Source: a virus (taxonomy: Duplodnaviria; Heunggongvirae; Uroviricota; Caudoviricetes). Taken from it: a stretch of 42,956 nt of DNA. The position numbers and the translations under genes are program-made. The stretch lies in IMG/VR virus record IMGVR_UViG_2721755643_000001. The stretch is one strand, 5' to 3'. Below are positions 9,791 through 14,503 of the stretch, piece by piece (position 1 is the stretch's first letter; the number at the start of each line of letters is the position of its first letter). The notes under the pieces were generated by a model that was not told the origin of the DNA, did not search any database, and saw nothing but the letters and a program-made list of their open reading frames with translations.

Positions 9791-10093
9791 ATGAAGATCA
9801 TCTCAGTTAAAACACTCAGGGATTTTTGGGCGGAGAATCCCGATGCAGAACAACCGCTAAGGGCATGGGTGGATGAGGCAGCAAAAGCTGACTGGAAAAG
9901 CCCGGCAGACATTAAGGCACAATACCGAACGGCTAGTATATTGAAAAGCCGGCGTGTGGTATTCAACATAAAAGGTAATCATTACCGTTTAATTGTTGCA
10001 ATTGCGTATCAGCGAGGATGGGTATTTGTTAAATTCATCGGAAGCCACAAGGAATACGATGCCATTGATGCTGATACCATCGAACTGGAGTAA
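9791..10093 (+). CDS. higB: Type II toxin, HigB/RelE-like mRNA interferase
   Basis: About 100 aa, MKIISVKTLRDFW...YRLIVAIAYQRGWVFVKFIGSHKEYD resembles HigB; toxin-first order, 2-nt gap to an HTH antitoxin. Confidence 0.75.
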   Translation: MKIISVKTLRDFWAENPDAEQPLRAWVDEAAKADWKSPADIKAQYRTASILKSRRVVFNIKGNHYRLIVAIAYQRGWVFVKFIGSHKEYDAIDADTIELE

Positions 10094-10095
10094 GC

Positions 10096-10455
10096 ATGAA
10101 CATCAAACCTATTCGTACAGAGCAAGATTATGAAGCCGCGTTGCGTGCTGTTGAGCCTATGTTCGACAATGAACCGGAAATTAACACGCCTGAGGGGGAT
10201 TTCTTTGAGGTGATGTGTTTGCTAATAGAGGAATATGAAAAAAAACATTATCCCATTGAGCCACCATCCCCAATTGAAGCTATAAGATTTCGCATGGAAC
10301 AGCAGGGGCTGACCGTGAAAGATTTGGAACCCGCAATTGGGAAAAAAAATCGGGTTTACGAGGTGTTGAATGGCACCAGAAGCCTTACGTTACCAATGAT
10401 TCGCCGTCTTCATAATCAATTTGGTATCCCCTTGGAAAGCTTGGTGGGATTATAA
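10096..10455 (+). CDS. higA: Type II antitoxin, HigA-like (XRE-type HTH)
   Basis: 119 aa immediately downstream of the toxin; C-terminal HTH-like segment GLTVKDLEPAIGKKNRVYEVLNG. Confidence 0.75.
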   Translation: MNIKPIRTEQDYEAALRAVEPMFDNEPEINTPEGDFFEVMCLLIEEYEKKHYPIEPPSPIEAIRFRMEQQGLTVKDLEPAIGKKNRVYEVLNGTRSLTLPMIRRLHNQFGIPLESLVGL

Positions 10456-10939: not shown

Positions 10940-11020
10940 ATAAGTGGCATTACAAATAGAAGTTGAAATTTAAAATTAAATTTGTAATTATCGATACCAT
11001 CGTAAAGTTTGGAGGGAAAC
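10940..11020. promoter_or_regulatory. OR-like operator region with divergent promoters
   Basis: Intergenic between divergent repressor and Cro-like genes; ATTACAAAT (10949-10957) and ATTTGTAAT (10980-10988) are inverted half-sites; 15-mer shared with 9733-9747. Confidence 0.55.
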
Positions 11021-11293
11021 ATGCAAAAAAGTACTCAAATAAAAATCCTGTCGATAATGAGCCAATCAGAATTAGGGCGTCGTCTTGGTAAAACTCCACA
11101 AACCATAAGTGGGTGGTTTAAAAAACGAGTTCCTGCGGAGGAGGTTATTCCTGCATGTGAGGCGCTTGACTGGGGAGTGACTCCGCATGAATTGCGCCCT
11201 GATAAATACCCTAACCCGACCGACGGTTTACCTGTTGGATGTAAGGTTAACAGATCAAATGAACCGGAGTTGATTCATGAAAATCAGGCATGA
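11021..11293 (+). CDS. Cro-like HTH regulator (YdaS-like position)
   Basis: HTH QSELGRRLGKTPQTISGW; GGAGGG Shine-Dalgarno before the ATG at 11021; first rightward gene. Confidence 0.75.
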   Translation: MQKSTQIKILSIMSQSELGRRLGKTPQTISGWFKKRVPAEEVIPACEALDWGVTPHELRPDKYPNPTDGLPVGCKVNRSNEPELIHENQA

Positions 11294-11702
11294 ACACATC
11301 CGCATGGCGATGAATACCTGGGCGCATCCGGACGGTGAGAAAGTACCGGCTGCAGAGATTACCAAAGCGTATTTTGAACTGGGAATGACGTTTCCGGAGC
11401 TGTACGACGATTCACATCCGGAAGCCCTGGCTCGCAATACTCAGAAAATTTTCCGCTGGGTGGAGAAAGACACCCCTGATGCAGTTGAAAAAATTCAGGC
11501 GTTGTTACCAGCGATCGAAAAGGCAATGCCACCTTTGCTGGTGGCCAGAATGCGCAGCCACAGTTCAGCTTATTTTCGGGAGCTGGTGGAGACGCGGGAA
11601 CGACTGGTGAGAGATGCTGATGATTTTGTCGCAGTGGCGATCGCCGGTTTCAACCAGATGAATCGTGGTGGCCCGGCGGGAAATGCCGTGGCTGTACATT
11701 GA
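11277..11702 (+). CDS. cII-like / YdaT-family regulatory protein (tentative)
   Basis: 141-aa ORF overlapping the Cro-like stop; position equals cII in lambda or ydaT in Rac; family is inference. Confidence 0.55.
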   Translation: MKIRHEHIRMAMNTWAHPDGEKVPAAEITKAYFELGMTFPELYDDSHPEALARNTQKIFRWVEKDTPDAVEKIQALLPAIEKAMPPLLVARMRSHSSAYFRELVETRERLVRDADDFVAVAIAGFNQMNRGGPAGNAVAVH

Positions 11703-11718
11703 GGAAGCATTAATGAAA

Positions 11719-12144
11719 TCATCGACGCTTGAGAAAAACCAGAAGGTTTTCAGCCCCTTTAATAAAAATCTCGGGGGAGTGAAATTCGTAAAGACCATCA
11801 ACAGAATAACTACCGCAATTTTCGCATGCCTTCTCATATGCCATGAAGGCATGGCTGAGTCTTCGCGCTTTCCTGGCGCTAAGCATTCTTTCGAGTTCAG
11901 CGATATCACGCGGGCTAATTTGCACTATGTTGAGAAGCCCTTTTCTGGCAAGGTTAATTTTTTGCATCAATTCGGCCGCGATAGGATCTGCGATTGCGTT
12001 GAATTCCTTGCGTCTGTCCCTGTTTACTGCCAGCCAATGACCGAAACAGATACCCAACCCAAAGGTAATCACGGTCCATATGAACGAAATGAGAGCTGGA
12101 TTCGTATTGAACAAGGTAACAAATTCACTCCAGATAGTATCCAT
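11719..12144 (-). CDS. Hypothetical membrane-anchored protein on the opposite strand
   Basis: 141 aa with one hydrophobic helix (LISFIWTVITFGLGICFGHWLAV) then a charged soluble domain; antisense to a long compositionally odd plus-frame ORF; weak Shine-Dalgarno. Confidence 0.55.
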   Translation of the reverse strand: MDTIWSEFVTLFNTNPALISFIWTVITFGLGICFGHWLAVNRDRRKEFNAIADPIAAELMQKINLARKGLLNIVQISPRDIAELERMLSARKARRLSHAFMAYEKACENCGSYSVDGLYEFHSPEIFIKGAENLLVFLKRR

Positions 12145-12446
12145 GGTTCTCGCCGATTACTCCTGGTTCTGCTGGCTGGCGCTGTGATTGTATTTCCGTC
12201 AGGGGTTTACTTTGGTCTAAAGGCAGTATGCAGACGTGATTATGCCCGAAGACGTTATACAGGGAAAGCACCGGTTCTTGGTGTTCTTTCAGTCCTGGTA
12301 ATCCCGAAGAAAGTGAAATGTCGCAGATGGCAGATCTGGGAGCAGCGTCAATGGTTCCGTGATATGAACCTTAGTCACGGTATTGATATTGCGTACCAGG
12401 ATACCCGGAACTGGAAAAAACTGGTAGCGGAGCGCTGGTATTAATT

Positions 12447-13487
12447 ATGGCTACTTCATGGCTCAGATTATGGCATGACATGCCAAATGATCCCAAGTGG
12501 CGAACAATTTCCAGGGTGTCAGGGCAGCCAATCGCAACGGTGATGGCGGTTTATGTTCACCTTCTGGTGAGTGCGTCACGAAATGTCACGACATGTCACG
12601 ACGTGTCACGACGTGGTCACATTGATGTCACGACAGAAGATTTGGCAAGTGCGCTCGACGTGACAGAAGAGTCAATTGATTCAATTTTGCGGGCAATGCA
12701 GGGGCGGGTACTTGATGGAGATTTAATCACCGGATGGGAAAAACGCCAGGTAGCGAAAGAGGATAACGGTAATGTTTCGCAAACCGCGAAATCCCCGGCA
12801 GAGCGGAAGAGAGCGCAGCGTGAGAGGGAAAAATCACGAAAAAAGGATGAGGGATGTCACGATGAGTCACGCATATGTCACGACATGTCACGACGAGTCA
12901 CGACAGATAAAGATACAGATAAAGAATTAAACCCCACACATAACGCGCGCGTGCGCGAGAGTGCTCCGACCAGCGAGTCGAACGGTACGCCGTTGCAGGT
13001 GGCGGAACCTGAATTTCCGGACGGCCTGAGTGAACCCATCGGGAAATTTCCGATGACCGATGGCTGGCATCCGTCGCCGGATTTTCGACGGCGGGCTGCA
13101 TTGTGGGGAGTGGCTCTGCCGGAGCCGGAATTTACACCTGCTGAACTTGCCGCATTCCGGGATTACTGGATGGCGGAGGGCAAAGTGTTCACGCAGGTTC
13201 AGTGGGAGCAGAAATTCGCCCGTCACGTAAATCACGTCAGGGCACAGGTCAAACCAGTCAGCAAGGGGGGCAGCCATGCAGCAGCACCAGGTGGCACCGC
13301 ATCACGGGCAGTTCAGGAAATTCGGGCAGCACGTGAGCAGTGGGAACGTGAAAACGGATTTATCAGCGACGGAAACGGCCTGGAAGCTGTGGGAACTCAT
13401 GGGGGAGGTTTATTCGAACCGCTGGACCCGGAAGAACGGAGCCGCACCTTCGAAGCTCTGGATTGCACAGATTGGCGCGATGACTGA
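12447..13487 (+). CDS. Replication initiator (O-like) with in-gene iteron origin
   Basis: 346 aa; contains two clusters of TGTCACGAC iterons translated as CHD/SRR repeats; sits before a P-like gene. Confidence 0.8.
12574..12634. repeat. Iteron cluster 1 of the replication origin
   Basis: TGTCACGAC at 12584, 12594, 12604 and 12626 with degenerate copies at 12574 and 12614; roughly 10-bp phasing. Confidence 0.8.
12855..12904. repeat. Iteron cluster 2 of the replication origin
   Basis: TGTCACGAT/AGTCACGCA/TGTCACGAC/TGTCACGAC/AGTCACGAC at about 10-bp spacing, followed by AT-rich AGATAAAGATACAGATAAAGAATTAAA. Confidence 0.8.
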
Positions 13488-13941
13488 GCAGCAAATCCGG
13501 CAGGTCTGCCGCCAGTGCATGGAGCGTTGTCGGGCGGGTGAAACATGGCCTCCGGACCTGGCTGAGTTTGTGGCGCTGATTTCGGAAAGCGGAGCCAATC
13601 CATTCGGTCTGACGGTGGATGCCGTGATGGAAGAGTACCGTCGCTGGCGCAATGAGTCCTGGCGATACGACGGGAGCGATAAATACCCGTGGCCCCAGCC
13701 CGTGCTGTATCACATCTGCCTCGAGATGCGTTCAAAAGGGATTGAGCGGCAGATGACCGAAGGGGAGTTAAAACGACTTGCAGAACGGCAACTGACGAAA
13801 TGGGCAAAGCATGTTGGTAATGGCTTCAGTGTTCCGCCCATCCGGCGACAACTGGCAGGACCAAAACGTCCTGCGGGACCAACGCCAATTGAGTTGCTGA
13901 AACAGGAGTATGAACGCCGGAAAGCGGCTGGTTTTGTTTGA
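13276..13941 (+). CDS. Replication protein P-like (helicase loader)
   Basis: C-terminal two thirds align by eye with lambda P ([10 protein letters not shown]..., [11 protein letters not shown]..., [13 protein letters not shown]); ATG at 13276 has an AAGGGGGG Shine-Dalgarno but overlaps the O-like gene by about 210 nt; later starts (13399, 13480) possible. Confidence 0.65.
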
Positions 13942-13975
13942 GTTGAGAAGTGATTTTTACCGGGAGAAAAATTTT

Positions 13976-14488
13976 ATGGAGACCGTTTTTGACGCACTGA
14001 AAGCAATGGGAAAAGCCTCTTCACAGGAAGTTGCAGCACGCCTGGGCATGACCCGGGATGAAGCAATCAACGAGCTGTGGAAACTGAAGCGTCGGGGTGA
14101 GGCAGACAACAAAGGCCCGATGTGGTGGCTGACATCCGGCGATGAGGAAAAACAGGCCGGGTATCGTGAAACCCCCGTTGTGGATTTAATCCCACAGAGA
14201 GGGACTGAGAGTGAAAAAACAGCCAGACAGGAAGCGTCCGGAACAGAAAACACGGGTCAGCATGCAGATGTGACAGAAGTTGTTCAGCCAATCCCTGCGT
14301 TTACTGAAAAACAGCAGGATTATGTGATTCTGCCATCACTGCATGCGGCAAACCGTGAGCTGCGCCGGGCAAAAGGTCAGGTCCAGAAGTGGGAGCGTAT
14401 CTGCGCCGCGCTACGGGAGCTGAATAAACACCGGGACGTTGTCCGGCAGATTGTCGACTCTTCCCGCCGTGTTGCATCGGAAAAGTGA
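13976..14488 (+). CDS. Hypothetical protein
   Basis: Start at internal ATG of track ORF 13910..14488 with a GGGAGA Shine-Dalgarno; 170 aa. Confidence 0.55.
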   Translation: METVFDALKAMGKASSQEVAARLGMTRDEAINELWKLKRRGEADNKGPMWWLTSGDEEKQAGYRETPVVDLIPQRGTESEKTARQEASGTENTGQHADVTEVVQPIPAFTEKQQDYVILPSLHAANRELRRAKGQVQKWERICAALRELNKHRDVVRQIVDSSRRVASEK

Positions 14489-14503
14489 TTGCCGGAGGCG
14501 CTT

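Follow-up and report, generated by a model that had tools for sequence, protein, structure and literature searches.

Phage lambda carries its replication origin within the gene of its own initiator, O, where four internally dyad-symmetric sites of roughly 19 bp precede an AT-rich tract and a dyad. Short repeats are arranged differently in the satellite phage P4, whose ori and crr form two separated arrays of one short repeat bound by one initiator, and in iteron plasmids of the P1, R6K and pPS10 type, where a winged-helix Rep protein binds phased direct repeats beside an AT-rich region. In the Bacillus phage SPP1, the origin oriL is made up of direct repeats together with an AT-rich DNA unwinding element within gene 38, and the product of that gene, the replisome organizer gp38 (G38P), binds it (PMC6316719). 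Here we describe two arrays of a short direct repeat, with the core GTCAC(G), inside a predicted initiator gene of a 42,956-nucleotide (nt) stretch of viral DNA (IMG/VR record IMGVR_UViG_2721755643_000001, hereafter the window), which is a Rac-like/lambdoid prophage of Escherichia coli. Judged from the sequence, these arrays and the AT-rich tract that adjoins the second of them most probably form a vegetative (theta) replication origin inside the gene of its own initiator. An initial annotation of this DNA had proposed such an iteron origin, and the proposal was favoured by each computational test applied to it: selection on the repeats, their conservation across hosts, motif switching, the mosaic structure of the module and its gene context.

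The locus resembles lambda O and ori-lambda in that the inferred origin lies within the initiator gene, in that an AT-rich tract and a dyad come, in this order, after repeated candidate initiator sites (a layout comparable to that of ori-lambda), and in that the N-terminal part of the protein and the sites form an exchangeable module, the C-terminal part going with the helicase loader; lambda O follows the same modular logic. A P-family gene (PF06992) comes next, at the same place in the early-right operon. With SPP1 gp38 and oriL, the locus shares direct repeats, as well as an AT-rich tract, inside the initiator gene, here with predicted binding by the gene product. It had been suggested at the outset that the arrangement is that of the lambda ori-in-O with a different repeat unit. 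The placement inside the initiator gene and the distinct unit stood, whereas the initiator proved to be analogous and not homologous to lambda O, as it lacks a match to PF04492 and has a DnaT-like C-terminus. The arrangement also departs from that of lambda, with short direct repeats at about one per helical turn and a first cluster within the region coding for the DNA-binding domain. By sequence comparison, the locus is thus a lambda-like ori-in-initiator arrangement in a protein family unrelated to lambda O or G38P by detectable homology.

Two phased repeat arrays inside the initiator gene

The elements of the candidate origin are as follows (aa, amino acids; AF2, AlphaFold2; ORF, open reading frame).
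12447-13487, plus strand: initiator gene of 346 aa (ORF), which holds both clusters, the inverted site and the AT tract
12447-12761, plus strand: region coding for the N-terminal domain, aa 1 to about 105 (AF2 model)
12575-12634, plus strand: iteron cluster 1, six direct GTCAC(G) sites, encoding aa 43-63; sites at 12575 (GTCACGAA), 12585, 12595 and 12605 (GTCACGAC), 12616 (GTCACATT) and 12627 (GTCACGAC)
12657-12664, minus strand: single inverted site GTCACGTC, from a motif search
12856-12904, plus strand: iteron cluster 2, five direct sites, encoding aa 137-153 in a predicted disordered linker; sites at 12856 (GTCACGAT), 12866 (GTCACGCA) and 12877, 12887 and 12897 (GTCACGAC)
12903-12935, no strand assigned: tract rich in AT and in purines, made of two ACAGATAAAGA repeats and then ATTAAA
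12940-12957, no strand assigned: GC-rich imperfect dyad ACGCGCGCGTGCGCG just 3' of the AT tract; the window copy is weak, with arms of 5

The two clusters lie within 12574-12904 and together comprise 11 direct GTCAC(G) cores on the plus strand, in agreement with the nine to eleven copies in two clusters counted in the initial annotation; 7 of the 11 sites are exact copies of GTCACGAC. The distance between the clusters, previously put at about 220 bp, is 221 bp from end to start and 229 bp from start to start. Core starts are spaced by 10, 10, 10, 11 and 11 bp in cluster 1 (mean 10.4 bp) and by 10, 11, 10 and 10 bp in cluster 2 (mean 10.25 bp). Spacing of 10-11 bp in both clusters places the sites on one helical face, as the helical phasing of about 10 bp claimed for them implied. 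The 229 bp between the clusters correspond to 22.0 turns at 10.4 bp per turn, a value that is suggestive at most, as other periods fit almost equally well.

All seven exact copies of GTCACGAC occur in 12585-12904 on one strand, and none is found elsewhere in the 42,956 bp on either strand. Shuffled sequences gave an expectation of 1.09 copies, and 0 of 100 shuffles reached seven. The 11 GTCAC cores in 331 bp likewise compare with 0.25 expected from the remainder of the window (Poisson P about 4e-15). When one mismatch was allowed, the motif was not enriched across the whole window (28 found against 28 expected), and the signal therefore resides in the clustering and the exact matches, not in the total number. 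As a candidate for a second, distant array comparable to oriR of SPP1, we considered the only other local excess, four GTCAC/GTGAC copies near 39.8 kb, which were within chance for the number of windows scanned. We also rejected the palindrome GACATGTC, which is formed by adjoining units, as the true binding site, because relatives keep GTCAC(G) constant but have freely varying spacers.

Cluster 2 continues straight into ACAGATAAAGATACAGATAAAGAATTAAA, and 12903-12931 is 79% AT, which bears out the AT-rich stretch noted earlier after the second cluster. Within the initiator gene, the duplex of lowest stability is the 40-mer at 12905-12944, which lies at the 99th percentile of the window; the tract at 12903-12935 is presumed to be the DNA unwinding element. 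Of 23 loci, 78% show an inverted repeat (arms of 6 or more) in the 90 nt past the AT tract, compared with 24% of random 90-nt controls. Examples in relatives (L006-L030) include CCCCCGC..GCGGGGG and CGCGCA..TGCGCG, and a GC-rich dyad at this place is a possible accessory element. No DnaA boxes were found in 11-14.5 kb, no structured RNA matched Rfam at E<=1 in 11000-14500, and a promoter and terminator scan gave nothing persuasive within the origin region.

Conservation, motif switching and modularity of the arrays

Successive repeat copies, with their 10-bp period, fall in all three reading frames and encode the residues NVT, CHD, SR and RGH; the ORF translation agrees with the CHD/SRR-type peptide first read from these repeats. 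Selection was tested on 22 relatives from 22 bacterial species genomes, over the first 315 nt, which align gap-free, with a mean pairwise nucleotide identity of 68%. Third-codon-position entropy was 0.17 bits inside four shared cores and 1.38 bits elsewhere (Mann-Whitney p=1.8e-5), and the spacers between cores were nearly saturated. Four-fold degenerate positions were invariant in the GTC (Val) codons at nt 141 and 162, the ACG (Thr) codon at nt 144 and the GGT (Gly) codon at nt 150. Because the copies are read in all frames and synonymous core positions are almost invariant, the repeats are, by this test, under selection as DNA and not as peptide.

A homologue search with the N-terminal 162 aa returned 891 homologues, and a scan of GTDB with one genome per species yielded 39 loci. 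About 24 of these 39 share one plan, in which GTCAC stands at gene nt 129, 139, 149 and 160 and GTGAC, inverted, at nt 193, with three to five GTCAC near nt 387-430 and then the AT tract. Their hosts include Escherichia, Shigella, Serratia, Rahnella, Pseudomonas, Bordetella, Chromobacterium, Aquitalea, Acidovorax, Castellaniella and Gilvimarinus. The inverted GTGAC at nt 193 was kept in most relatives, and every relative of the GTCAC type had a cluster 2 of three to six copies spaced by 10-11 bp. The 60 nt 5' of cluster 2 share nothing among relatives, whereas the cores of cluster 2 and the (A)GATAAAGATA tract align in every one of them. A (G)ATAAAGATA tract of 50-82% AT adjoins cluster 2 in relatives that include those of Bordetella, Chromobacterium and Acidovorax. 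From this plan the canonical count is four sites, one inverted site and three to five further sites. The arrays are expanded to six and five copies in the window and in Escherichia albertii, with the reading frame kept; cluster 1 has four copies in phage Tritos and in Shigella as against six in these two. In a locus of Erwinia phyllosphaerae (L015), denser arrays were observed at gene nt 159-181 and 411-451, where units overlap at 5-bp spacing (GTCACGTCACGTCACG) and CGTCACG occurs 12 times.

In some relatives a different motif stands at both cluster positions. GTAACG takes the place of GTCACG in L008, L029, L033 and L037 (loci from Sphingomonas, Pantoea, Enterobacter and Marinobacter), and CGAACGC does so in L034-36, L040 and L042, where the encoded loop peptide becomes SNATERGRTQN. 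Position, 10-bp phasing and AT tract are all retained in these switched sub-families. The three motifs have an ACG(C) core in common, which fits with winged-helix helices that are nearly the same in all groups. Of the residues outside the repeat-encoded segments, only the basic segment that follows 'RQ' in the protein differs among groups; it was considered as a specificity determinant and rejected, as it tracks deep clades, not repeat type. In L033 (Enterobacter hormaechei), the inverted site at gene nt about 213 reads GTTAC, the inverse of its own GTAAC repeat, instead of GTGAC. The change is made through a synonymous Val codon that keeps the peptide LDVT. A hint that the inverted copy is a genuine site comes from this single case, with which L029 does not agree.

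BLAST splits the initiator gene at nt 459-479, so that the joint between its N-terminal and C-terminal modules coincides with the AT-rich tract (boundaries in query nt). Gene nt 1-479, comprising the N-domain and both clusters, recur at about 85% identity in Tritos, Evi and further phages, whose C-terminal half is unrelated to that of the window and is DnaD-loader-like by PHROG. Conversely, gene nt 459-1041 match Rac-SA53 ydaU and PPompW prophages at 89-93% identity; in these the N-domains differ and GTCACGAC is absent. In a PPompW prophage (L005, Stx2a phage records, 2307-2503), a third type of N-domain, HTH_36-like, is fused to the same DnaT-like C-module, and the linker has about six ACACCCAAA-type repeats, which are probably the iterons of PPompW itself. 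We found no tight repeat array with the Rac-type YdaU, which has a DUF1376 N-domain; the three N-domain types thus do not all have obvious iterons.

The module also occurs apart from any such fusion. In two Pseudomonas aeruginosa loci (L048/L049, 5001-5483), the N-domain and both arrays make up a stand-alone ORF of 160 aa that ends just past the AT tract; it stands after Cro and CII and is followed by an ORF of 135 aa and a Toprim-DnaB primase-helicase of 609 aa, a layout that places origin recognition and helicase recruitment on separate polypeptides. In Bordetella, the module is placed after CII and NinB. Judged by distribution, the N-domain together with its sites behaves like a self-contained cassette for origin recognition, able to pair with different helicase-recruiting partners. 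In the region around gene nt 330-520 of two further loci, L041 (a Serratia metagenome-assembled genome) and L043 (Pantoea), the N-domain is without repeat arrays and leads directly into YVYYVATTDGDVVRVGISRNPWARCKDL / YYVYFVVLRSNYDCYVGISSNPWARVNDL; this segment looks like a GIY-YIG-type nuclease motif and, by its sequence, like another fusion partner of the N-domain.

The initiator protein and the proposed function of the arrays

Two further features concern the C-terminal half of the initiator and its partner.
13047-13247, plus strand: DnaT-like domain binding single-stranded DNA (ssDNA), aa 201-267 (Pfam PF17948, E=3.2e-18)
13480-13941, plus strand: lambda-P-family helicase loader gene, which overlaps the 3' end of the initiator gene

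The 346-aa protein is labelled 'DnaT-like ssDNA-binding domain-containing protein' in RefSeq, matches 'replication initiation protein' families of PHROG, and has relatives named 'phage replisome organizer' by NCBI. The AF2 model of its N-domain consists of helices at 2-11, 16-25, 29-45, 63-70 and 74-84 plus a beta wing, with a predicted local distance difference test score (pLDDT) of 91-96 for most of aa 11-100. On the basis of this model, the N-domain is presumed to be winged-helix-like and to bind the iterons. Pfam placed the N-domain in no family above threshold in any of the 67 family members scanned, a scan that listed 25 families in all. Cluster 1 encodes a low-confidence hairpin (aa 43-63) between helices 29-45 and 63-70, and cluster 2 with the AT tract encodes aa 137-163, a segment predicted to be disordered; the repeats thereby occupy structurally permissive parts of the protein.

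The C-terminal domain is better defined. PF17948 scored 65.6 bits against a cut-off of 25, and a PDB profile search matched the domain to DnaT, a host replication-restart protein that is not known to have an origin-binding role. Foldseek returned 4OU6/6AEQ at template modelling (TM) scores of 0.86-0.93 and 53-60% identity, the domain being like E. coli DnaT residues 84-153; the AlphaFold model superposes on these residues (PDB 4OU6) with a TM score of 0.93 and 59-60% identity. NCBIfam PRK02854, which represents full-length DnaT, scored 96 bits against a cut-off of 201, and the protein is accordingly not a full-length DnaT. Its C-terminal half (nt 459-1041) is 92% identical in DNA to Rac-SA53 ydaU; YdaU differs in its DUF1376 N-domain and has no GTCACGAC repeats.

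Homology to lambda O was rejected, since PF04492 (Phage_rep_O) had no match in the window protein, nor in its N-domain even at E<=10, and was absent from the 25 families of the 67 members. The sites differ as well: in place of the lambda sites, this locus has direct repeats of 8-9 bp, spaced by 10-11 bp with unconserved spacers, in 6+5 copies. These form two arrays 229 bp apart, the first of them inside the region coding for the DNA-binding domain and not the linker, and the C-terminus is a DnaT-like ssDNA-binding domain. Homology to SPP1 G38P was rejected on the basis of an hhalign comparison of the family profile with G38P (probability 0.04, E=0.91) and of Pfam, where G38P matches Phg_2220_C alone. 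PF09681 (Phage_rep_org_N) had no match in the window protein and matched 2 of the 67 members, weakly. Tritos, a close relative, scored 12.8 bits against this family, with a cut-off of 23.3 (E=0.12), and had weak matches to the PHROG 'replisome organizer' at 4e-6. A very distant relationship to replisome organizers may be reflected in these scores. SPP1 also has a second origin, oriR, about 13 kb off, whereas both arrays lie in one gene here, and its partners are gp39 and gp40, with no P-like loader. In P4, several kb separate ori from crr, and the initiator, alpha, is a primase-helicase; plasmid iterons are 17-22 bp long, spaced by about 22 bp and usually outside the rep gene. We found no sequence relationship to P4 or iteron-plasmid initiators in the Pfam scan of the 67 members.

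From these features we infer initiator binding, looping, melting, loader recruitment and origin activity, in the following order. Rightward early transcription after derepression would make the initiator and the P-like loader. The winged-helix-like N-domain would then bind the GTCAC(G) sites and, given their spacing of 10-11 bp, occupy a single face of the helix, where it could polymerise along each array. The two arrays, about 22 turns apart, might be drawn into one wrapped or looped complex, the strain of which would melt the adjoining AT-rich, purine-rich (GATAAA)n tract. Finally, the DnaT-like C-domain could bind the exposed single strand, dock P-DnaB, or both, so that the host helicase is loaded. 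A more elaborate version can be envisaged, in which the origin is bipartite and array 1 anchors a loop to, or acts as an enhancer in cis on, array 2 and the unwinding element, in-frame gain and loss of repeats (4-6 copies) tunes firing, and one induced prophage fires co-resident, even defective, prophages in trans via the GTCACG specificity that up to five prophages of one E. coli genome have in common. We regard this version as speculative and unlikely; if true, trans firing would amplify the cargo genes of these prophages in pathogens, O157:H7 and O121 among them.

The arrays could instead be sites at which the initiator or another phage protein acts in regulation (autoregulation or an intragenic roadblock, titration or handcuffing, incompatibility among co-resident prophages), with the origin elsewhere. 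Conservation and motif switching prove DNA-level function alone, and cluster 1, at 229 bp from the AT tract, could be purely regulatory. Iteron plasmids also employ additional arrays for copy control, as in P1 incA and R6K, and with at most five module copies per E. coli genome cross-talk is plausible. However, the 43-kb window has no further cluster of GTCACGAC, cluster 2 in every case, GC-rich hosts included, adjoins an AT-rich tract of the kind that marks an unwinding element, and the position matches both the lambda ori-in-O and SPP1 oriL. We therefore consider a purely regulatory function quite unlikely; a regulatory cluster 1 could in any case coexist with origin function and does not replace it as the explanation of the locus.

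Much less credible is the idea that the repeats are a by-product of a repeated peptide (CHD/SRR/VT-type) or a functionless slipped-strand expansion. Protein alignments do show no variation in the peptide that each cluster encodes, and a copy number that varies between 4 and 6 is typical of slippage. Yet 10 bp is not divisible by 3, so that the copies give different residues, sub-families swap the entire peptide for SNATERGRTQN while retaining a phased DNA repeat, and the freely varying spacers, together with the invariance of synonymous and four-fold positions in the cores, those outside being nearly saturated, largely refute this explanation. We give equally little weight to the idea that a different protein binds the arrays for partition, at a centromere-like site, or for packaging or recombination. 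Two clusters of about five helically spaced direct repeats do resemble parC of plasmid R1, which has two sets of five phased direct repeats, and the module is present on a few plasmids (8 of 3113 places). On the other hand, no partition genes lie nearby, the neighbours being cro-, ydaT- and P-like genes, DUF1627 and DUF977; the arrays co-segregate with the initiator N-domain alone across mosaic partners; and an adjoining AT-rich tract has no role in such sites.

Several observations weigh against a replication origin within the initiator gene. Three relatives (L032, L038 and L039) are without a clear repeat array, and the GC dip at the AT tract is shallow in a 100-bp composition profile. Similarity of the N-domain to winged helix-turn-helix (wHTH) proteins is weak, with HTH_Crp_2 at E=0.0066 and CAP, MarR and ArsR folds at non-significant E-values, and the wHTH helices are nearly identical across sub-families with different repeats, so that no specificity determinant emerges. 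Conservation shows the sites to be functional protein-binding DNA but does not, by itself, establish that they act in initiation. Searches of the literature for the repeat sequence, Rac oriJ and replisome organizers with iterons returned no publication describing these repeats, and a paper on the replication region of Shiga toxin (Stx) phages makes no mention of iteron, DnaT, DUF1376, ydaU or replisome organizer (PMC8044961).

Genomic setting and distribution of the module

Sequence with 100% identity to the initiator gene is present in O121 and other chromosomes, including that of E. coli O121 strain 201805972. The gene order around the initiator gene comprises a repressor on the minus strand, a Cro/YdaS-like gene, a YdaT-like gene, an unassigned 0.7-kb stretch, the initiator, the P-family loader, and DUF1627 and DUF977 genes. 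The initiator thus occupies the O position of the lambdoid early-right operon, directly 5' of the P-family gene, a context that lies after Cro/CII-like genes and before the P-family loader and NinB/NinG genes. Assignment of the loader gene (13480-13941) is based on Pfam PF06992 (E=4.5e-16), PHROG 109 'P-like helicase loader' (3.2e-54) and the RefSeq name 'replication protein P'.

Between the ydaT-like gene and the initiator, RefSeq has a 'hypothetical protein' of 243 aa at 11713-12444 on the plus strand. Antisense to it, at 11719-12144 on the minus strand, lies an ORF of 141 aa with a hydrophobic N-terminal segment, in a stretch of lower GC content (0.40-0.47). Neither the 243-aa nor the 141-aa product had a match in Pfam or PADLOC, and a 259-aa plus-strand reading (11665-12444) had none in PHROG. 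The true gene here may be the minus-strand ORF, as a moron insertion into the early-right operon. Just left of the repressor, in the immunity region, are a HigB-family toxin gene and a helix-turn-helix gene (about 9791-10455; 3345-4009 in L001), the latter of which could encode the antitoxin of HigB.

The origin and N-domain module was found in 2182 of 5426 complete E. coli genomes (about 40%), with up to five copies per genome, and the N-domain module is also present in prophages of many other Proteobacteria. Among phage records, 25 carry the N-domain, and none of them is a classical model phage. Most E. coli database entries for the initiator protein in the homologue list are marked 'partial'; draft assemblies may frequently break in or near the initiator gene, perhaps as several prophages per genome share it.

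The arrangement follows the logic of lambda and SPP1, so that it introduces no new principle and would not surprise a specialist. It does provide a concrete candidate origin for a large class of lambdoid prophages whose proteins are now labelled 'DnaT-like' or 'hypothetical', in a widespread initiator family whose origin we found described nowhere in the searchable literature. Synonymous recoding could separate the DNA function of the repeats from the function of the protein, and the GTCACG, GTAACG and CGAACGC variants offer a natural series for the evolution of initiator-origin specificity. The presence of this candidate origin also raises the question of replication cross-talk among co-resident prophages in Shiga toxin-producing E. 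coli (STEC).

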